The position numbers were made by a program, and so were the translations under genes. This document shows, piece by piece, positions 1-49,150 of a DNA stretch of 64,000 nucleotides. The notes beneath the pieces were generated by a model, which worked only from the letters and a program-made list of their open reading frames with translations, was not told where the DNA came from and did not search any database. Within the stretch, counting starts at the first letter, position 1. Each line of letters begins with the position of its first letter. Source of the stretch: a phage; the sequence record PZ534511.1. One strand, 5' to 3'.

Positions 1-3000
1 TTGAGAAGTTGTAAGTTCCGTTATAAGTGTGTGTCCCTGAGAATGTGACATCTGCCTTCCCGTAAGAGATGCAAACCAACGCATACTTCCTGTCAGGCAA
101 CGTTTCTCCAGTCTCTGGGTGAGTTTTACCTACCTGGAACACACTCGGGTCAGTAGAGTCGTGACTATCACTAACGGAGCTTGGACCGCCCATCAACTGT
201 GACAAACAATTCCTTACCCATGTCCAGTTATTATCGCTGGAGAAGTCCACAGTCAAATCAAACACAACCCACTCATTTGGCTTCCACACAGGTGTTGCAA
301 TGGACTTGCCTACACCGCCTCCTTGGAGTGTTGCCGACTGTTCGGTGATCAGTGCCGCATAGGCCAGAGTTCCTAAACTCAGAGTCTGGCTTGCTGTCCT
401 CACTACCTTAGAATCAGCATCTGTGAAGTTGTTGATGATTTGGAATGTGCCATAAGTGTTTTTACAGGTAATTCTGGCGTTCAGCGTGTCAATCTTCCTC
501 ACATCTGCCATAGCAGTGTTAGACACAGAGAAGTCAGAAGCTTTAGCTGAGTTTGCCGCAACAGCAGGATCAACGTTAAGAGTTGCGTTGAACTGACAGG
601 CAGGGGTAACCAGCAGCTTGTTATCACCTATTTGCTTCCATGAAATACTTTGGACAGGTAGATTCCATTTAATACCTGAGAAAACTTTAGCAACCCTTGG
701 CCCCAAAGCTCCAGTCCTGTTGTCTTTACAGCACATAGACATGGTGATCGTTGACGGAGTTGCCTGACCGAACAATTCCTGTGCTTTTGCAGAGGACATG
801 GTGTAGAAATTGTCCTTAACAAACTCATCAGCGGCTAAAGATCCATCAGCCCTCCACCACTGGACCTGATACCCTGTTTTATCCCAGCCTCCAACCTGCT
901 TCAAGTCCTCCCAAGAGATTTCCAGATCCCCCGTGGTAGGGTTGATTGCAGCAGTTCCTGGTGTACCGGATGACCACAATGGGATATCAAACCACGCAGG
1001 TTTAACAGATTGCACTGCATTAGGACCTATTGCAGCAGCAAGTTGTTGACCCATCAGCACGCGAGCATCTTTCACCAGGCCCCATTCTATCATAGACCCA
1101 GAGTAACCTTCTTTCTTGTAGGCAGAGGATCCGTTCAAATGGATGAGCCTGCTGCAGTCGAAGCCATACGCTCCACCACCGTTAGGATCTGCAAAGTTGG
1201 TTATGATTCTATCCCTAATATTTTTCCATGCCCTACCTCCAATCTCGTAGTCATGGTCATAACATCTTTGCAACGTTGTCCAGCAAATGATTGCCATTCT
1301 TCTGCCGCCTGTGAACCCGAAAGCGCCGTCATTCAGCTCTTTCCACAGGTAACAGTTGGTTGTCCACATAGCCCTGTGGATATTGAACCAGTTTATAGAT
1401 TTGGCTGAGTTGTTCCACTGAGTCCCAGGTAATTCAGGCCACACTGCATTGACTAGCATGTCCTCTGTACCGGCATCTATTAAGAAGCCTCTTACCTTCT
1501 TGCCCATACCTACCCTGTCTTTAGCAATCCAATTGCCAAACAGTCTCAGTTTTGGACCATAAACAACATCCTCTGGGTGCTCAAAAGAGACATACTTTAA
1601 GTAGATTGTTGGGTCACCGTAGGTGCCATCACAAACACTTTTGTGCATGTTTTCGCCAAGGTCTAGACGAAGCCCCGTCACTACTTTAGACGTGTCGGTG
1701 AATTTGTCTGTTAAGTCAAATTCATACCACCACCACCCACCACCTAGCATAAATTTCTTGCATCGCACAGCGTCTGTGTCAGATATTCTCTTATCCCCTG
1801 CAAAAGGTGAATCAGCAAACTGATAGTGCAGAGCAGTCTCAAATAGGTGGGTGGAAGTTCCGTTCTCTGCAAGAACTTGCTTACCTATCAGATCGCACTT
1901 AATGATCATCACAACACGCTTGTATCCGTTTGTTACCGGAACTTGCATAGATATGGATGTTCCATCCATGTTCGATCTTAGATCACTCATGATGATATAG
2001 GGGTCGACAGCGTTGCCTAAAGTTTCAGGCCCTGGAATTATCTTGTATTTCTTGACCTGGCCCATAAATCTGTCACTGGCGTAAGTTGCAGCCTCAAAAC
2101 AAGAGCCACCACCAGGTAATTCTCCAGGTCCCCAGAAAAATGCCCCATAGCAGTTATAGAACCACTTATTAGGGTCGTATTTGTTCTTGAAGGTCTGGAC
2201 CTCGTTGGCCTGTTTTGTCAAGAAAACCTGCGTGTCTGTGAAGATTGCAGGGTTTACTCTCGCCTGTCTTGGAGGGTAACCTGTAGTTTGGTTAAACCAC
2301 AAATTACAAGAGTAATCCCTCATATAGTCATAATCAGAGTATTTGTTTACATCTTCGTTCCAACACATGTTTAGGTTGGTACCGCCCATGCATACAATAT
2401 ATTCTGCGACATACTTATCACTTCTGGTAGGAATACCTATGAACCATCTGTTAACAGGCTCATCCCAAGCTGTGCGCTCATCTTTAACGCAGATAGCAAT
2501 CCAGTCATGTGTTCCTGTTTTCTTGCACACATCTCGCTTCATACCATAGTAGAACTCTTTAGTATTCGGCTCAGGTGCATTTATCAGGTAACTCCATGCC
2601 TGATTTGCATAAGTTCCATTGGTGCGTGGATCATGATCAAAGGCATACATGATGATCCTTTCCCCACCAAGATGTTCGCCAAGAGTAACTTTGACATTCA
2701 CATCGCCGTAACCATTGCGAACAACATCCATATTATCAATAGAGATACCTCTGGGCGTGTAGGCAATTTTCAGCGAGTTATCTTCACTAGTGCCGCCAAG
2801 TGTAATCCCTATGTTGTTTGTTGTCCCGTCGACATATCTTACTGTAGCTTCCCAGCGTATTCCGAAATACCCTGCATCATGGCTGACAATTTTCAGTGTA
2901 CGAGCTCCTGGGTGAGGTTTTCCAGGATCAGGCCAAGGGTCTGGGTGTTCGTGAACAGTCAACGACGTTCCGTTCTGCTCATTAACCTGCAACATTTTAC

Positions 3001-42167: not shown

Positions 42168-43724
42168 TTAATTTTCCATGTTGGATATGGAATTATCTCT
42201 GGTTGATGACATCTTAGAAGTGCCGTTACCAGTGGATCCTGCAGCCATTCCATCACCAGCCCTACTGATGTCCTGGCCCAAGAGCTTCATCAGCTCTTCC
42301 TGATCCATGTCCTCGTCAAATCTTTCATCAAACCCGCCTACTTCAAGAATCTTATTAATTACTGCAGGAGTTTTTGGCAAGTAACCTACAGCACCGATCC
42401 TCTGGACAAATTTGGAGAAGCTCTCCATGTCCACCTCTTCAATCAGACCAGGTTTCAGTTTAGGCATATCATCATCTTCAAGGATGATACCATTCAATGC
42501 CAGAAGCTGTGGAATAAGATCCTTATTGAAGGCTTCAGTGATAATATCTATATCACGCTGAACAAAATGACCATGGATAGACTGTTTTGACTCAGACAGA
42601 GAGAAGGATCCAACGTTATCGTTACCGAGGTTAATAAAGCCAGCACCGAAACGGTCAAGAATCGCCTTCTTACGGGCATCAATCAAATCTTTAGTCGAAT
42701 ACTGCTTACCCATACCATCAACCCCCTTCAGGGTCATGGAGTAAAGCTCTTTACCAGACTTATCTCTATCAGACGGAAGTATAAAGAAACTTTGCTCACC
42801 ACTATGGGCGTTTGCTGCGTCAAGCATAAGGTCTGCAACCATTCTCCCTTCCATTGAATTCGGGTCAATGCTGGCCTTGTTCAAAATATTGGAAGGAATT
42901 TTCAGCTCAAGCACGCCACCAAGGTCTTTGGAACAGCCAACAACCTCAAGGTTTTCAATCAGAACTTTCTCACGGAAAGATCTGTAGCAACCTATCATCG
43001 GTGACACACCTGCAGGGTTAGATTCTGTTCCTGACAGGGTCATGAGCATAAGCTTTTTAGCAGGGATGAAAATTTCAGGCTCATTAAAGCCTTTTGAAGG
43101 CATTGCAGCAAGAGGTCCAGCCCAGCGTGCATTCTGAGTGTTTAGAAATGCATTAGGTGACTGATAAATACCTGTCAGTGTTCTACTATTCTTGTCAAAA
43201 ACAAACGGCTCTGATCTGGACAGGCTGGCCTGAGGTCGGAATGCAATTTTATCAATAAGAAGCATCCCGGCATATTTACCTTCTTTCTCTCTGCGGTATA
43301 CTTTCTCAAACAGTGAAAAACCATACTCGTTAAAGGTAGCTGCGCTTCTTGCAATATCTCGAAGAGTTTGTTGGTTTGCCAAATTACGCAAAGAATACTC
43401 TATAAGCTCGGCAGCTTTCTTAGAGTCTTCACTTTTAACATTATAAAGGATCTTAAAATCATTGAATGCTTTCGTGATGAAAACATATTTTGTATCTAAG
43501 GCAGTAGCAACTGTGGAATCACATTTCATAGTCTCCACTGTGGCAATCAGCTGAGGCCAACGCAATTCCTCAACCATCATAGATTGCGATTCTGCCATAA
43601 TTTGGGAAAGTGCGCCAGAACCGATCTCACTCATACGAACATTATGAGTTGGTGCGCCTGCGTTCCCAGATTTATTCACAGTTTTGGCTGTGGCGTTGTG
43701 TTTCCTGCGGTTCTTTTTGGACAC
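42168..43724 (-). CDS. portal protein (518 aa)
   Basis: Size and position directly downstream of terminase large subunit; GTG start with GAGGGG RBS. Confidence 0.55.
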   Translation of the reverse strand: MSKKNRRKHNATAKTVNKSGNAGAPTHNVRMSEIGSGALSQIMAESQSMMVEELRWPQLIATVETMKCDSTVATALDTKYVFITKAFNDFKILYNVKSEDSKKAAELIEYSLRNLANQQTLRDIARSAATFNEYGFSLFEKVYRREKEGKYAGMLLIDKIAFRPQASLSRSEPFVFDKNSRTLTGIYQSPNAFLNTQNARWAGPLAAMPSKGFNEPEIFIPAKKLMLMTLSGTESNPAGVSPMIGCYRSFREKVLIENLEVVGCSKDLGGVLELKIPSNILNKASIDPNSMEGRMVADLMLDAANAHSGEQSFFILPSDRDKSGKELYSMTLKGVDGMGKQYSTKDLIDARKKAILDRFGAGFINLGNDNVGSFSLSESKQSIHGHFVQRDIDIITEAFNKDLIPQLLALNGIILEDDDMPKLKPGLIEEVDMESFSKFVQRIGAVGYLPKTPAVINKILEVGGFDERFDEDMDQEELMKLLGQDISRAGDGMAAGSTGNGTSKMSSTRDNSISNMEN

Positions 43725-43744
43725 AAGCTTTACCCCTCAAAACA

Positions 43745-43774
43745 GTATAACAAAATAGCCCTCGTCAGAGGGCT
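43745..43774 (-). terminator. hairpin/terminator-attenuator between terminase and portal
   Basis: agccctc-gtcag-agggct perfect 7-bp stem (43757-43774) followed on minus RNA by AUUUUGUUAU. Confidence 0.4.
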
Positions 43775-43824
43775 AGTATCTCCAATTACTTTATTGTACC
43801 ACATCTAATTAAGATTGGCAACAC

Positions 43825-44625
43825 TTAGATAAAACGCTTGAACATAGAAGGTGATGAGATTGATGGAATCACACAAGGAAGTGCTACCTCCTCTTTCTCC
43901 AGGAAATTAATCGCAGAAGCTACGCAGTCGGCCCAGTCGTCTTTTCTGTTAAATGTTGATCTTTCCCCGTTGAATTTTTCAAGTTCAGTCAGAAATGCTT
44001 CCAGAGTATCAGGATGGAAACTGGATTTTACAATCCTCACCATTCCTTGTTGGGCAAGATTGGCAAAAGGTGAGAACCTTGTCAGTTTAGACTTGTTGGA
44101 AGGCATTGGGTCTTCTTCAACCCTGAACCCTTCGGCAAGCAAGGATCTGGAGGAGGTTAAGAACTCACTCTTACCTGCCTGCCCTGGGTCCACAGAGAAG
44201 ACGATTATGCAATCATCACCATCGAACTGCGCCTGTTTCCTGATGATCACATCTCGTTCACCAGCCTTTTTACAGAACTTGCCTTCCAGACCTGTGGAAT
44301 ACCTCCCGTCATCCACGTTCTCAGGACAATAATCACCGGACAGGTAATAAAAGCCGTCGCTATCTTTACTTACCTTAATACTGGCAGTAAAGTCAGGAAA
44401 TTTATTACCGGAAGTTCTCTCGGTTCCTGCCTTATCCCATGCCCTGCAAGATACTGACCCAAGAGGTACTCTATCGGCATCACGAAGGAAAGATCTTTGA
44501 AAATAGTTTGCACCCTCAGGCTTTGCAAACCAGTTACCATGGAGAAGCTGAGCTTTTTCCAGCTCTGGTAGACCTTCAAGGAAAGCAAGGTATTCTGGGT
44601 TATCTCTCAGGCAGACAGGATTATC
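43825..44625 (-). CDS. terL: terminase large subunit, exon 3 (nuclease domain); 5' boundary approximate
   Basis: Frame open from about 44631 to stop at 43825; contains nuclease-type acidic motifs (CRAWDKAGTE, DCIIVFSVDPGQAG, KDDWADCVASAIN); upstream intron carries group I R/S-like elements. Confidence 0.6.
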   Translation of the reverse strand, partial: DNPVCLRDNPEYLAFLEGLPELEKAQLLHGNWFAKPEGANYFQRSFLRDADRVPLGSVSCRAWDKAGTERTSGNKFPDFTASIKVSKDSDGFYYLSGDYCPENVDDGRYSTGLEGKFCKKAGERDVIIRKQAQFDGDDCIIVFSVDPGQAGKSEFLTSSRSLLAEGFRVEEDPMPSNKSKLTRFSPFANLAQQGMVRIVKSSFHPDTLEAFLTELEKFNGERSTFNRKDDWADCVASAINFLEKEEVALPCVIPSISSPSMFKRFI

Positions 44626-45604
44626 GAATCCTTATATTCAAAGGTGGTCGCAACACCACCTTCCGCACCTTTACGTGCTGCTGCATGTTACCATGCAGAG
44701 TAGACTATATCACCACCCATTTCAGGGTGCTTCGCTTTTCGAGCGCCATAAGCTTGCGCCCTACTCCCTCTCGGGATAGTCGTTGAACTACATTACCAAT
44801 CGTAATTGTTTGAAATATAGGTGTAAGTCTTACGGTCTTTTATTCCTTTAACAACACTAAAACTTACTCCCCACTTCTTAGCTATTTTATTGACACACAA
44901 GACCTTATCACTAAGATCCTCGCAGATACCTATTATCTTGTGCTCACTTATCCGATTAGAGGTTGGCACTTTTCTAAAGTTAAACTCTTTAGAAATATCT
45001 GGGTATACTGAGCCATTCTTTATACCACTTACAAGTGGTTGATTGACACCGAACATTTCACAAATGTCTTTTACCCTTGCGCCTTGTTCTAACAGCCTAC
45101 ATATTTCAAGAGCAGTGGCATCATCCAGGGACCTGTATTTATTGACATAGTCCTTTTTAAGTCCCATTTCATGAGCGTGATGTGTGTTTTCCTCAGGCGT
45201 TGTCCACTCAAGGTTCCATGCGGCGTTATTCAACTTATTACCATCTAGGTGGTTTACTTGAGTTTTCACGCTGGGATTGTCATTATCAACAAAAGTCATA
45301 GCAATCACTCTGTGAACGAGCACTTGGAACTTTTTACCGTCCTCGCACAAAGTTACCATAGCATAGCCAGTCTTTTTCTGCACATTAGGATGGAGGAATT
45401 TATTAGAATACAGACTGTAAATTCTGCCATCGTATGTAGCACAATAATGATTGTAGCCTAAAAAGCCTAAATTTTTCATTTCAAACATCTCCCTACTACA
45501 GGTTCGGAAGGGTAATTATAGCTGCTGATTGTCCGTTTAGCAATCGGATTTCCCAGCAATTAACGAAGTTATTCGACGTGCATTTCTGCACGAAGCCACT
45601 ATCA
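44626..45604 (-). mobile_element. group I intron 2 in terminase gene (boundaries +/- about 15 nt)
   Basis: Separates terminase exon 2 and 3; contains HNH ORF plus conserved-looking elements GTTCAACGACTA (plus-strand tagtcgttgaac 44778-44789) and GATATAGTC (plus 44703-44711). Confidence 0.55.
44793..45488 (-). CDS. HNH homing endonuclease (intron-encoded)
   Basis: 231 aa; HNH core NHLDGNKLNNAAWNLEWTTPEENTHH; located wholly within intron 2. Confidence 0.65.
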   Translation of the reverse strand: MFEMKNLGFLGYNHYCATYDGRIYSLYSNKFLHPNVQKKTGYAMVTLCEDGKKFQVLVHRVIAMTFVDNDNPSVKTQVNHLDGNKLNNAAWNLEWTTPEENTHHAHEMGLKKDYVNKYRSLDDATALEICRLLEQGARVKDICEMFGVNQPLVSGIKNGSVYPDISKEFNFRKVPTSNRISEHKIIGICEDLSDKVLCVNKIAKKWGVSFSVVKGIKDRKTYTYISNNYDW

Positions 45605-45925
45605 TTTAATGGTTGCGCCTATAAACGAGAATGACAACGGTCTTGGCTTGATCTCAACACCCAGTCCGTTAACCGTGGTGTATTTCTCTATCAACTCTTC
45701 TTTAGAGTCTCCCCAGATAAATTCACCGTCGCGTCGGATAAAATATCTTTTCTTACCGCATTTCTCCGGATCTGGATACCCTTCATCGTCCAACCACCAT
45801 CTAACCAGTTTGGCAAGCATGTGTTCTGAATCGGGGTTACAGCTGATAACCATTCTTGATGGATACTTTGACTGAGATCGCAGACGAGACATCAGATAGT
45901 CTATCTGCTCCCATTCGAATTGTGT
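45605..45925 (-). CDS. terL: terminase large subunit, exon 2 (ATPase coupling region); boundaries approximate
   Basis: Frame open 45928..45605; sequence TQFEWEQIDYLMSRLRS...MVISCNPDSEHMLAKL continues logically after exon 1 Walker B (FDEG). Confidence 0.55.
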
Positions 45926-46808
45926 CGTTTATGTTCGGGCAAGGTCGCTAGTCTTGCCCCGCCATTTTCAGGCAGCTGCATGTCTCCATGCAGACCAGAC
46001 TATATCTTATGAATGTGTAAATACTCTGCCGCTCTAAGAATAGTTTCCTCATCCTCTTGGAAGAAACCTAAAGCTCTGTTGCATTTATCACAAAGCAACC
46101 CTCTTACAGCACCAGTTTTATGGTCATGATCAACACAAAAGAAATCTCTATACCCTTGCGTCCTATACTCATCAAGGGATATTCTACAAATGGCACACTT
46201 ATGATCTTGATCTGAGAGTAGACGATAGTATTCATCTTTTGTTATGTGAAATTTCTTCTCAATCTGATAAAACTTTTCACACATCTTACACCTGTTCGTA
46301 ACCAGATATACTTTACCATAGTCACGTTTTGTGTAAAAACTATCAGCGAGCATACTTTCATGACAAGATTTGCATTCAAAAAGTTCACCTTTCTTCAGCA
46401 AGTCTTGAATAAACAATGCTGCGTCATCTCTCTTAACCATATTTTTGTTTTTACGAGATCCACCCTTCCTGTAGTACATATAGCATTCCTTGCATGTACC
46501 TGAGTATCCATCCTTGCTCTTAGATGATAAAAAGAAATCATCAATAGGTAGAACTCTTTGGCAATCCATACATTTTTTAGTATTACACATTCACCCTCCC
46601 GTTTCGAATCGCTTGATTCTACGTCTTTCGACTAGTCGTTGAACGTTCATCCTCTCGGATGCTTCGCTGCGGATTATCTAAATTAACACACTGTTACCAT
46701 ACCTTCGATCTCTCTTCGAAGCCTCTATCATGTTACCATGACAGGTTGGTGGTGTCAATAATAAAGATTTCCCCGCAATTAGGGAGGTTTTACGAGAGCT
46801 ACAAATTA
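45926..46808 (-). mobile_element. group I intron 1 in terminase gene (boundaries +/- about 15 nt)
   Basis: Inserted immediately after Walker B codons; contains R-like element (plus tagtcgttgaac 46633-46644), HNH ORF, S-like element (plus gactatatc about 45999-46007). Confidence 0.55.
46000..46590 (-). CDS. HNH/endonuclease VII-like homing endonuclease (intron-encoded)
   Basis: 196 aa; N-terminal Cys-rich zinc finger and C-terminal CVDHDHKTGAVRGLLCDKCN motif; ATG with GGGAGGG RBS; inside intron 1. Confidence 0.65.
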   Translation of the reverse strand: MCNTKKCMDCQRVLPIDDFFLSSKSKDGYSGTCKECYMYYRKGGSRKNKNMVKRDDAALFIQDLLKKGELFECKSCHESMLADSFYTKRDYGKVYLVTNRCKMCEKFYQIEKKFHITKDEYYRLLSDQDHKCAICRISLDEYRTQGYRDFFCVDHDHKTGAVRGLLCDKCNRALGFFQEDEETILRAAEYLHIHKI

Positions 46809-47234
46809 ACCCTCATCGAAGCAAACCATGGTATACTCAAGCCCTTGATGGTTAAGCTTATCTTGTACATACTCCATGTGGCAGTATTTTACAACAGCTC
46901 CCTTTTTGCTTCTATCCCACTTGCCGGTGTTCGGATCAAACCGTGGAAAAATGAACTTATGATCCTTCTCTCTGAACTTTGGCTTAATGTTTTCAGGCAG
47001 ATCACTATAAATAGCTACTGCTTTAGGCCATAGTCCACCCTCACCTTCCAACTGTGGGGTTGTTCTTCGGAACATAACCACAGAGCTGTGGGGGTCATCA
47101 ATAATTTTAAGTGGCATCAATTGCAAGAGGAACGACTTGCCAGACCCTGCGGCACCGCCGATTACCAAAATATCTGCATCGTTTTCAAGGATCATCTTCT
47201 GCTTTTCAGAACACGGTCCGTAAATCTTAGACAT
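46809..47234 (-). CDS. terL: terminase large subunit, exon 1 (ATPase Walker A/B)
   Basis: Walker A GGAAGSGKS, Walker B MVCFDEG at exon end; in-frame TAA follows immediately (intron start); ATG overlaps spanin stop (TAATG). Confidence 0.7.
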
Positions 47235-47521
47235 TAACCTCTCTCCTTTGGAAACAGTGTTCTAATATAGTCTTGCAAAATGATCAATTTAGCTCTATCA
47301 TTGCTACAAGACAGATTATTATCCCTCATAATGCCAGAATTCACTGCATCTGGCGCACCTTTCTTCAAAGGCATAGCTTTAGCAGGTGGTTTCATGGCAC
47401 CTTCCGGGGGTTTAACAATCAACCTTCCTACATCAGGAGGGTCAATCTTGTATTCTCTCTCAACGCTGGTTGCACACCCACATAATAACAAGCACACAAT
47501 AAACAGTGCAGCAACTCTCAT
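47234..47521 (-). CDS. o-spanin (Rz1-like outer-membrane lipoprotein)
   Basis: 95 aa; signal peptide ending in lipobox-like LLCGC, Pro-rich mature region; overlaps i-spanin by 4 nt. Confidence 0.55.
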   Translation of the reverse strand: MRVAALFIVCLLLCGCATSVEREYKIDPPDVGRLIVKPPEGAMKPPAKAMPLKKGAPDAVNSGIMRDNNLSCSNDRAKLIILQDYIRTLFPKERG

Positions 47522-47916
47522 CGACCCTCCTGATTAATACTCTCATTATAAATATCTATAAGCTGATCAGGGAGTGTTGACTTCTTACCCTCAGGTGATT
47601 GGAGGTAAATAATCTGCTTTTCTTTACCTGCCCTCTCAGCTATATTTAATTTATCCTGCAGATCAGAAAGAGATTTTTCAAGGTTTTTAACCTCCTCTGC
47701 GTGGCCCATTTTAATCTTGTCGGCCTGCTTTTGTTGCTGATCAAGGATCCGTTCCCACTTTAACTCTGTTGCTGACACACCCTCCTGGTAGGCATCATTA
47801 AGCTTGGAGTTAAACCAATACACGGCCCCAAGATAAGCTGTACCTATCGCAGCTGCAAAAACTAAACCTTTTATGATCCCTTTATACCTACTCAGCCATG
47901 TTAAAACTGAAATCAT
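47518..47916 (-). CDS. i-spanin (Rz-like)
   Basis: 132 aa; N-terminal TM (GLVFAAAIGTAYLGAVYW) followed by coiled-coil periplasmic domain. Confidence 0.55.
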   Translation of the reverse strand: MISVLTWLSRYKGIIKGLVFAAAIGTAYLGAVYWFNSKLNDAYQEGVSATELKWERILDQQQKQADKIKMGHAEEVKNLEKSLSDLQDKLNIAERAGKEKQIIYLQSPEGKKSTLPDQLIDIYNESINQEGR

Positions 47917-48337: not shown

Positions 48338-48414
48338 TGGTCTCCACGGAGTGATTCGAACACTCGACCTCCTGATCCCAAATCAGGCGCTCTACCAAGC
48401 TGAGCTACGCGGAG
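48338..48414 (-). tRNA. tRNA-Pro (anticodon UGG)
   Basis: Manual fold: acceptor CUCCGCG/CGUGGAG, D-arm GCUC/GAGC, anticodon loop UUUGGGA, T-loop UUCGAAU, CCA encoded. Confidence 0.8.
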
Positions 48415-48425
48415 TATTTATTATT

Positions 48426-48500
48426 TGGTGGCCCTGGGTGGAATTGAACCACCGTCTGGCGATTATGAGTCGCTTGCTTGAACCTTCCAGCTACAGGGCC
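48426..48500 (-). tRNA. tRNA-Met or tRNA-Ile2 (anticodon CAU)
   Basis: Acceptor GGCCCUG/CAGGGCC, anticodon loop CUCAUAA, T-arm GGUGG-UUCAAUU-CCACC, CCA encoded; G1-C72 suggests elongator type. Confidence 0.75.
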
Positions 48501-48501
48501 A

Positions 48502-48577
48502 TGGTGCTGATAGCAGGACTCGAACCTGCAACCTATTGATTACAAATCAATTGCACTACCAATTGTGCTACATCAGC
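48502..48577 (-). tRNA. tRNA-Thr (anticodon UGU)
   Basis: Acceptor GCUGAUG/UAUCAGC, anticodon stem-loop AUUGA-UUUGUAA-UCAAU, T-loop UUCGAGU, CCA encoded. Confidence 0.8.
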
Positions 48578-48582
48578 AAAAA

Positions 48583-48681
48583 GGTGCTAGGTGATGGAAT
48601 CGAACCACCTATGTATTCAACGACTACCTCGTCTATTTTCAGGATTAAAAATCCTCGCCCTTGCCAAAGGGCTTACCTAGC
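48583..48681 (-). tRNA. atypical tRNA-like gene (about 99 nt; identity unresolved, CCA not encoded)
   Basis: Perfect 7-bp acceptor (GCUAGGU/ACCUAGC), D-arm GCCC/GGGC, T-arm GGUGG-UUCGAUU-CCAUC, but about 47 nt between D- and T-arms containing AGGAUU-UUU-AAUCCU hairpin and a second GACGA-GGUAG-UCGUU hairpin. Confidence 0.45.
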
Positions 48682-48779
48682 TCAGTATGTTGACCATGTT
48701 GCTAGTCGGCGATGACGACTGTAACATTTGATAATCCGGTTCTGCTTCCGGCTTTCGCTTAATTACAAGGTCAACAATA

Positions 48780-48870
48780 TGGCTGAGGGTAATGGAATCG
48801 AACCATCATCGAGTCATCCTCAACGGGACGGTTTTCAAGACCGCTTGAGCACCATTGCTCCCTACCCTCA
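48780..48870 (-). tRNA. tRNA-Ser (anticodon UGA), type II
   Basis: Anticodon stem-loop GCGGU-CUUGAAA-ACCGU, long variable arm (UUGAG-GAUGA-CUCGA), T-loop UUCGAUU, discriminator G, CCA encoded. Confidence 0.75.
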
Positions 48871-48984
48871 TTTATAAACAATACTGATAATGACACTGAT
48901 TTTCGAGCAGTTAGTGACTAGTATAAACGACGATAAATATCAATGCCATTATCTGTATGATTTATGCATTTAAAAATGTAAATT

Positions 48985-49071
48985 TGGTGGGGAGTGGTGG
49001 AGTCGAACCACCCGAGTCGCAATGACAATAGATTTACAGTCTACACCGCTACCTCTACGGGATAACTCCCC
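48985..49071 (-). tRNA. tRNA-Tyr (anticodon GUA), type II
   Basis: Acceptor GGGGAGU/ACUCCCC, anticodon loop CUGUAAA, long variable arm, T-loop UUCGACU, CCA encoded. Confidence 0.8.
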
Positions 49072-49075
49072 AATT

Positions 49076-49150
49076 TGGCACCCCGTACTGGACTCGAACC
49101 AGTGTCAACGGCTTAGAAGGCCGCTGCTTTATCCACTAAGCTAACAGGGC
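49076..49150 (-). tRNA. tRNA-Arg (anticodon UCU)
   Basis: Anticodon stem-loop GCGGC-CUUCUAA-GCCGU, T-arm ACUGG-UUCGAGU-CCAGU, acceptor with two G-U pairs, CCA encoded. Confidence 0.7.

Follow-up and report, generated by a model that had tools for sequence, protein, structure and literature searches.

Group I introns have been described before in genes for the large terminase subunit (TerL), and the closest described system is coliphage rV5. Its two-intron TerL arrangement is already known, having been published in 2013 in a section entitled 'Introns in terminase' (Kropinski et al. 2013, Virol J 10:76, where D. Shub is thanked for defining the intron location) and being present in the GenBank annotation: in the RefSeq record (NC_011041, rv5_gp065, 'ORF64ABC'), TerL is joined from three parts, and the second intron contains an HNH endonuclease. 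Here we analyse the TerL gene in a phage sequence of 64,000 nucleotides (record PZ534511.1; the whole stretch is called the window below), where it occupies 47234..43825 on the minus strand. Two mobile group I introns, both of the phage IA type, very probably interrupt this TerL, which belongs to an rV5-like coliphage. A preliminary interpretation made from the letters alone, referred to here as the sequence-only reading, had proposed a TerL in three exons separated by two group I introns; this interpretation is supported by the sequence comparisons described below. The novelty that it implied is not, given the rV5 join and the 2013 paper.

The window and rV5 share the same gene and both insertion sites, with 98% DNA identity. 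The sole difference is that intron 1 of rV5 lacks an open reading frame (ORF), with 18 nucleotides replacing window positions 46592..46011, whereas window intron 1 carries an Endonuclease_7 gene. An architecture identical to that of the window, with an ORF in both introns and a TerL gene span of 3410 nucleotides, is found in phages vB_EcoM_HdK5 (MK373780), phiWec193/196 and A140/A141/A142/A13b, in whose records the pieces are annotated as separate hypothetical proteins, with no join. The Vequintavirus phages of the BASEL collection have the same TerL and the same sites, annotated as joined coding sequences: in RudolfGeigy (MZ501102; j3) both introns lack an ORF, and WalterGehring (MZ501111; j2) has intron 1 only.

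In Pectobacterium phage CB7 (Certrevirus, of the same subfamily), a TerL intron has been shown to splice by reverse transcription PCR (PMC7344957). This group I intron contains an HNH ORF and lies in the Walker B region of the orthologous TerL. The possibility that it occupies the site of window intron 1 was considered and rejected: it lies between the D and E codons (GVD|EGTQF), 6 nucleotides upstream. In the position of its ORF (before J6/7) and in its HNH type, the CB7 intron (385..1343 of locus L009) resembles window intron 2, so that the Walker B codons of two genera have been hit at almost the same place by different introns. The first terminase gene reported to contain a group I intron was terL of Lactobacillus phage LL-H (Mikkonen & Alatossava 1995), which the rV5 paper cites. 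It has a single intron in an unrelated siphovirus, and is likened to the window by description.

The T4 td intron (subgroup IA2, encoding I-TevI) is 82% identical to the 3' 79 nucleotides of window intron 1, and has P7.1/P7.2-like hairpins in common with both window introns. The td ORF is looped out of P6, as in window intron 2. The ORF of window intron 1 differs from that of td in being of the Endonuclease_7 type, placed in P8, rather than GIY-YIG. The ORF of window intron 2 resembles I-HmuI (structure 1U3E), encoded by the intron of the SPO1 DNA polymerase gene. Unlike td and SPO1, the host gene in the window is a terminase, and not a gene of nucleotide metabolism or replication.

Exon-intron organisation

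A sequence match of 43700..47300 identified the source of the locus as an rV5-like coliphage (Vequintavirus). Identity is 97.9–98.3% over the full 3.6-kb region to HdK5, phiWec193/196 and the "Campylobacter phage" records A13b/A140/A141/A142, and rV5 and more than 100 other Vequintavirus genomes match the TerL region, leaving one or two large gaps.

In the ORF list, the minus strand from 47234 to 43825 holds three terminase-like frames and two gaps, with one sizeable ORF in each gap (46000..46590, 196 residues, and 44793..45488, 231 residues, both on the minus strand). The frames are as the sequence-only reading had them. The first (46806..47234, minus strand) contains Walker A and Walker B within 46809..47234 and ends ...MVCFDEG, followed directly by TAA; the second (45602..45892, minus strand) includes MVISCNPD at 45853..45830; and the third (43825..44316, minus strand) is the C-terminal piece of TerL, ending at 43825 as proposed. 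The junctions were set by aligning the window to sibling phages that lack one of the introns (ECML-10 and WalterGehring), which gives the following organisation.

47234..46809, minus strand: TerL exon 1, 426 nucleotides, codons 1–142, ending GGU
46808..45926, minus strand: group I intron 1, 883 nucleotides, UAAUUUG...AUAAACG
45925..45609, minus strand: TerL exon 2, 317 nucleotides, codons 143–247 and two nucleotides of codon 248, ending ...ACCAU
45608..44630, minus strand: group I intron 2, 979 nucleotides, starting UAAAUGAUAG and ending AUAUAAGG
44629..43825, minus strand: TerL exon 3, 805 nucleotides, last nucleotide of codon 248 to codon 515 and stop

At site 1, the empty allele of ECML-10 reads TTCGATGAGGGC|ACGCAGTTCGAATGG, and the window reads ...GATGAGGGT, then the intron TAATTTG...CATAAACG, then ACACAATTCGAATGG. 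At site 2, the empty allele of WalterGehring reads GGCGCAACAAT|ATTCGATAATCC, and the window reads GGCGCAACCAT, then the intron TAAATGATAG...GAATATAAGG, then ATTCGATAATCC. Two registers are possible at site 2, of which the one given here alone places a G at the end of the intron. Both 5' exons have U as their final nucleotide and both introns have G (omega-G), and the predicted joins are GGGU|ACACAA, after codon 142, and ACCAU|AUUCG, within codon 248. The limits proposed earlier were exact for intron 1; those for intron 2 had the same length of 979 nucleotides but were displaced by 4 nucleotides from the boundaries 45609|45608 and 44630|44629, because the stop of the ORF had been used. As had been suggested, intron 1 does directly follow Walker B, with a single codon between it and the glutamate of that motif (MVCFDE-G|TQF). 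The insertion point of intron 2 falls inside codon 248, which belongs to the conserved IFDNP motif (GAT-I-FDNP).

The joined terminase

The joined exons form an in-frame coding sequence of 1548 nucleotides, encoding 515 residues. The product is collinear with the uninterrupted TerL of phage pangalan (MN850627) and identical to it at 515 of 515 residues, which is what an alignment of the joined exons to intron-less terminases, proposed as a check, was expected to reveal. The two coding sequences differ at 21 nucleotides, all synonymous and clustered at the insertion sites. Unbroken alignments of the joined coding sequence were also obtained with at least 40 records that lack introns.

Pfam identifies Terminase_6N (72 bits) at residues 25–294, unbroken over both junctions, and Terminase_6C (27 bits) at residues 394–489. 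Walker A is GAAGSGKS (residues 27–34, 47156..47133) and Walker B is MVCFDE (residues 136–141, 46829..46812), both in exon 1, and exon 3 encodes the last part of the ATPase domain (IFDNP) together with the nuclease domain, which is RNase H-like. A sequence search of the PDB with the joined TerL gave no match at E≤0.01, so that the assignment of the Walker motifs rests on Pfam and on direct reading. The predicted product has the organisation of a T4-type large terminase, with an N-terminal ATPase and a C-terminal RNase H-like nuclease.

Predicted group I ribozymes

Two core motifs are each present in exactly two copies in the 64-kb window: GTTCAACGACTA at 46644..46633 and 44788..44777, and GATATAGTCT at 46006..45997 and 44711..44702, all on the minus strand. 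There is one pair of motifs in each gap, in the expected order, in agreement with the core elements reported by the sequence-only reading, and two matches were obtained in none of 100 shuffles.

A covariance-model search had been suggested for both gaps, and both match the Rfam group I family (Intron_gpI, RF00028) when searched in E-value mode. Intron 1 scores 48.5 bits (E=1.7e-10), and intron 2 matches in two halves that flank the ORF, with 21.4 and 35.7 bits (E=1.1e-6). The ORF-less alleles of RudolfGeigy (319 and 268 nucleotides) score 84.0 and 95.6 bits and cover RF00028 positions 1–253. The ribozyme parts of intron 1 are identical to the ORF-less RudolfGeigy allele at 213 of 214 and 85 of 85 positions, and those of intron 2 at 87 of 88 and 156 of 159. 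The sole large difference from RudolfGeigy is that 584 nucleotides stand in place of the P8 hairpin in intron 1, and 732 nucleotides in place of the P6 hairpin in intron 2. A scan of the whole window in E-value mode found no third group I intron, and an Rfam scan of the whole window at the gathering threshold returned only transfer RNAs (tRNAs). No group II intron was matched by Rfam in the region; besides Intron_gpI, it gave two chance-level matches to small nucleolar RNAs.

The helices were assessed by direct complementarity, and the subgroup from complementarity together with similarity. Minimum-free-energy folding was not used, because it cannot represent the P3/P7 pseudoknot. The main helices are as follows.

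46814..46807/46801..46794; 46787..46782/46600..46595; 46777..46772/46673..46668, minus strand: intron 1 helices P1, P3 and P4
46661..46657/46652..46648; 46637..46633/46002..45998, minus strand: intron 1 helices P6 and P7
46592..46583/46020..46011; 45993..45987/45982..45976, minus strand: intron 1 helices P8 and P9 (P7.1 and P7.2 are also present)
45612..45607/45601..45596; 45568..45564/44734..44730; 45558..45553/45528..45523, minus strand: intron 2 helices P1, P3 and P4
45521..45511/44797..44788; 44781..44777/44707..44703, minus strand: intron 2 helices P6/P6a and P7
44729..44725/44718..44714; 44698..44692/44687..44681, minus strand: intron 2 helices P8 and P9 (P2, P5, P7.1, P7.2 and P9.2 are also present)

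P3, P4, P6, P7, P7.1, P7.2, P8 and P9 are fully complementary in both introns. In P1 of intron 1, GAGGGU·UA pairs with UAGCUCUC (8 of 8 base pairs), and in P1 of intron 2, CCAU·UA pairs with UAGUGG (6 of 6). The U·G wobble of P1 falls exactly at both 5' splice sites, which had been set independently from the intron-less alleles. The earlier proposal, that the introns would fold into P1–P9 with correct splice-site pairing, is thus borne out at the level of complementarity.

Between ACGACUA and the 3' strand of P3 there are two hairpins in each intron, GUC/GAC and GAAUC/GAUUC in intron 1, and UCCC/GGGA and GGCGC/GCGCU in intron 2. The P7.1/P7.2 hairpins that characterise subgroup IA, the phage type exemplified by T4 td, are therefore predicted in both introns. 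Intron 2 is also similar to introns of Bacillus, T7-like, phiKZ-like and other phages.

Predicted intron-encoded endonucleases

Each of the two introns encodes a protein, in the loop of a different helix.

46000..46590, minus strand: intron 1 endonuclease gene, in the P8 loop, 196 residues, with a Cys-rich N-terminal half and an Endonuclease_7 domain
44793..45479, minus strand: intron 2 HNH homing-endonuclease gene, in the P6 loop, 228 residues from the ATG at 45479, in a frame that opens at 45488

The intron 1 protein matches Pfam Endonuclease_7 (PF02945) at residues 110–192, with an E-value of 2e-21 and 76 bits against a cutoff of 23.6, and its PDB matches are Hpy99I (9.6e-6) and T4 endonuclease VII (5.7e-4). 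The intron 2 protein matches HNH_3 (PF13392; 1.7e-6, 28 bits against a cutoff of 24.8) together with the helix-turn-helix domain HTH_23, and aligns with the I-HmuI structure 1U3E at residues 8–151 (E=3.6e-11). On sequence grounds both proteins belong to the HNH/ββα-Me group of endonucleases, and their cleavage activity and targets are predicted. The sequence-only reading had likewise described one as endonuclease VII-like and the other as HNH, which holds; it had also called them free-standing, and here it has to be corrected, both genes being inside intron loops. It further placed the start of the second ORF at 45488. The ATG at 45479 is the more likely start, with the Shine-Dalgarno sequence GGGAG 9 nucleotides upstream.

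The P8 stems of intron 1 are unrelated in ORF-bearing and ORF-less alleles, being GAAUGUGUAA/UUACACAUUC in the former and AAGCG/CGCUU in the latter (46592..46011, compared with 841..858 of locus L005). The intron 1 endonuclease gene therefore seems to have come or gone with its own stem, and not by simple insertion into an existing loop.

Polymorphism among relatives

The intron content of related phages was tallied for 82 Vequintavirus records, out of the 117 records that match at least 80% of the joined coding sequence, the state of each being read from the span of the match. These records are approximately 94–99% identical in TerL. Each site is either empty, occupied by an ORF-less intron or occupied by an ORF-bearing intron, and eight of the nine possible combinations are present.

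40 records: no intron
17 records: intron 1 with ORF only
10 records: intron 1 ORF-less only
4 records: intron 2 ORF-less only
4 records: both introns with ORF (the state of the window)
3 records: both introns ORF-less
2 records: intron 2 with ORF only
2 records: intron 1 ORF-less and intron 2 with ORF (the state of rV5)

The exon sequences next to the sites differ according to whether the site is occupied. Empty alleles of site 1 read GGC|ACGCAG or GGC|ACGCAA (4 of 4) and occupied alleles GGT|ACACAA; empty alleles of site 2 read ACAAT|A or ACAAT|T (4 of 4) and occupied alleles ACCAT|A. The empty-target sequences of the pangalan type are GAGGGCACGCAGTTC and GCAACAATATTCGAT. The bases that distinguish occupied from empty sites are those that pair in P1. 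The synonymous differences are concentrated within approximately 30 nucleotides of each site; those between the window and pangalan include positions 425, 428 and 431 of the coding sequence near site 1 (426), and positions 728, 740, 761, 762 and 770 near site 2 (743). This pattern fits co-conversion of the flanking exon together with selection for P1, as judged from the alleles compared.

It is worth adding that 18 GenBank records are entitled 'Campylobacter phage' (MG065635–MG065690, for example A140, A142, C9 and C15), with Campylobacter jejuni as the stated host. They are 97–98% identical to the coliphage TerL region and vary in intron content in the same way. They have the appearance of rV5-like coliphages that were either mislabelled or co-isolated.

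Proposed mechanism and alternatives

On the basis of these observations, we propose that the whole gene would be transcribed as one pre-messenger RNA of approximately 3.4 kb, in which each intron would fold into a P1–P9 ribozyme, with the endonuclease ORF looped out from P8 (intron 1) or P6 (intron 2). Each intron would then excise itself by guanosine-initiated, two-step transesterification, the exons being ligated at GGGU|ACACAA and ACCAU|AUUCG, and the spliced messenger RNA of 1548 nucleotides would encode a normal TerL of 515 residues. The endonucleases would presumably cut or nick the intron-less TerL alleles of co-infecting relatives in a mixed infection, and repair would copy the intron, with a short flanking stretch of exon, into the empty site (homing). 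In favour of the proposal, both ORF-bearing introns are also present in plaque-forming phages such as HdK5 and phiWec193.

Several observations weigh against this proposal. The window copies of both introns score below the RF00028 gathering cutoff of 50 bits, because the ORF inserts of 584 and 732 nucleotides interrupt P8 and P6. P10 is weak, with 4 of 5 base pairs in intron 1 (UUUGU/ACACA) and 3 base pairs in intron 2 (GAU/AUU); many phage introns have a short P10. The 5' strand of P6 in intron 2 (CUAUA) has an alternative local partner at 45500..45496. The Shine-Dalgarno sequence and the AUG of the intron 1 endonuclease lie within P3 and P8, and ribosome loading could therefore compete with folding. 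Finally, splicing in the window phage is something that we infer from its sequence. No experiments on the splicing of TerL introns of the rV5 type came up in the literature that could be searched.

With regard to P6, the sequence UGUAG is present on both sides of the intron 2 ORF (45521..45496 and 44797..44788, minus strand), and the CUAUA strand therefore has both a local and a long-range partner. With regard to the start site, the Shine-Dalgarno sequence of the intron 1 ORF (GGGAGG) forms the 3' strand of P3, and its AUG is inside the 5' strand of P8 (46600..46583, minus strand), so that the folded ribozyme would hide the start site.

A different explanation is that the gene is split but not spliced, with the insertions kept in the messenger RNA and three TerL polypeptides assembling after translation, like NrdA of Aeromonas phage Aeh1. 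That precedent, in which NrdA is split by mobE, is cited in the CB7 paper (PMC7344957), and the same paper reports one HNH-associated insertion that failed to splice. In the window an in-frame TAA terminates exon 1, an ATG lies within exon 2 at 45892, and several GenBank records give the TerL pieces as separate coding sequences, all of which this explanation would accommodate. We nevertheless regard it as very improbable. Both insertions contain complete group I cores, with the correct U·G and terminal-G splice sites. The exon 2 ATG has no obvious Shine-Dalgarno sequence, and exon 3 has a TAA one codon upstream, its first canonical in-frame start being a GTG at 44316, 104 codons in. A separate exon 3 product would be without residues 248–352, including the first acidic nuclease motif (AWDKAG). 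Moreover, ORF-less forms of both introns exist, and approximately 99% conservation of a core without an ORF is hard to explain if that core has no function. An intein was considered as well and rejected, given the TAA directly after exon 1, the in-frame TAAs before exons 2 and 3, and the codon split at junction 2. It is scarcely credible that the locus is a pseudogene in decay, or an artefact of assembly, from a defective phage or prophage remnant: at least seven records that were deposited independently share this architecture at 98% identity, the exon changes relative to an intact TerL are all synonymous, and both endonuclease ORFs are intact.

Another alternative accepts that the introns splice, and holds that splicing is rate-limiting or regulated, by endonuclease translation, temperature or Mg2+, so that the introns would exert control over the timing or dosage of terminase and would not be neutral parasites. 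This idea is favoured by the position of the intron 1 Shine-Dalgarno sequence in P3 (3' strand) and of the AUG in P8 (5' strand), since folding and endonuclease translation would then be mutually exclusive on one RNA molecule, and any inefficiency would be multiplied by having two introns in series. Against it, 40 of the 82 close relatives are free of introns and every intermediate state is viable, so that the phage can complete its life cycle without either intron, and an explanation by benefit to the host is unnecessary where start-site sequestration is known in T4 introns. In these introns, sequestration of the homing-endonuclease start site within the intron structure is an established feature. 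We therefore consider such control improbable. The preferred explanation remains that TerL is interrupted by two self-splicing, mobile introns.

A more specific hypothesis can be put forward tentatively, although we think it rather unlikely as a whole: that the sites represent a natural and nearly complete 3×3 set of homing-cycle stages, of which the window shows the fully loaded one, and that the mutual exclusion of intron 1 splicing and endonuclease translation may couple the supply of terminase to intron mobility. If this were true, splicing of an essential late gene and translation of the endonuclease would be alternative fates of each transcript.

The locus is a clean textbook case of mobile group I introns situated at the most conserved codons (Walker B and IFDNP) of an essential gene, and all stages of the cycle of invasion and decay coexist within a single genus of phages. 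The locus raises no new question. It does have a consequence for annotation. In many rV5-like GenBank records, the pieces of TerL and the ORFs of the introns stand as separate proteins named "hypothetical" or "terminase-like", and terminase phylogenies or predictions of packaging type that are based on such fragments will be wrong.

Neighbouring features

Upstream of TerL, the o-spanin gene (47521..47234, minus strand, with an LLLCGC lipobox) has a TAA that overlaps the TerL ATG at 47234 (the overlap site is 47231..47237), and this o-spanin gene in turn overlaps the i-spanin gene (47916..47518, minus strand). Translation of TerL is probably coupled to that of the spanin genes. One further element lies 3' of TerL.

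43750..43774, minus strand: putative intrinsic terminator, stem-loop AGCCCUC UGAC GAGGGCU followed by the U-run AUUUUGUU

The rV5 homologue of this stem-loop is annotated as a rho-independent terminator.

A tRNA cluster at 48338..49150 comprises seven genes. Between tRNA-Thr and tRNA-Ser it includes a tRNA-like element of 99 nucleotides (48583..48681, minus strand), and the homologous stretch of the rV5 RefSeq record carries no annotation. ARAGORN reports this element as 'tRNA-???' with a four-base anticodon (atcc), and the Rfam tRNA model gives 35.5 bits. Its fold is a cloverleaf with a long extra arm (z = -3.7).

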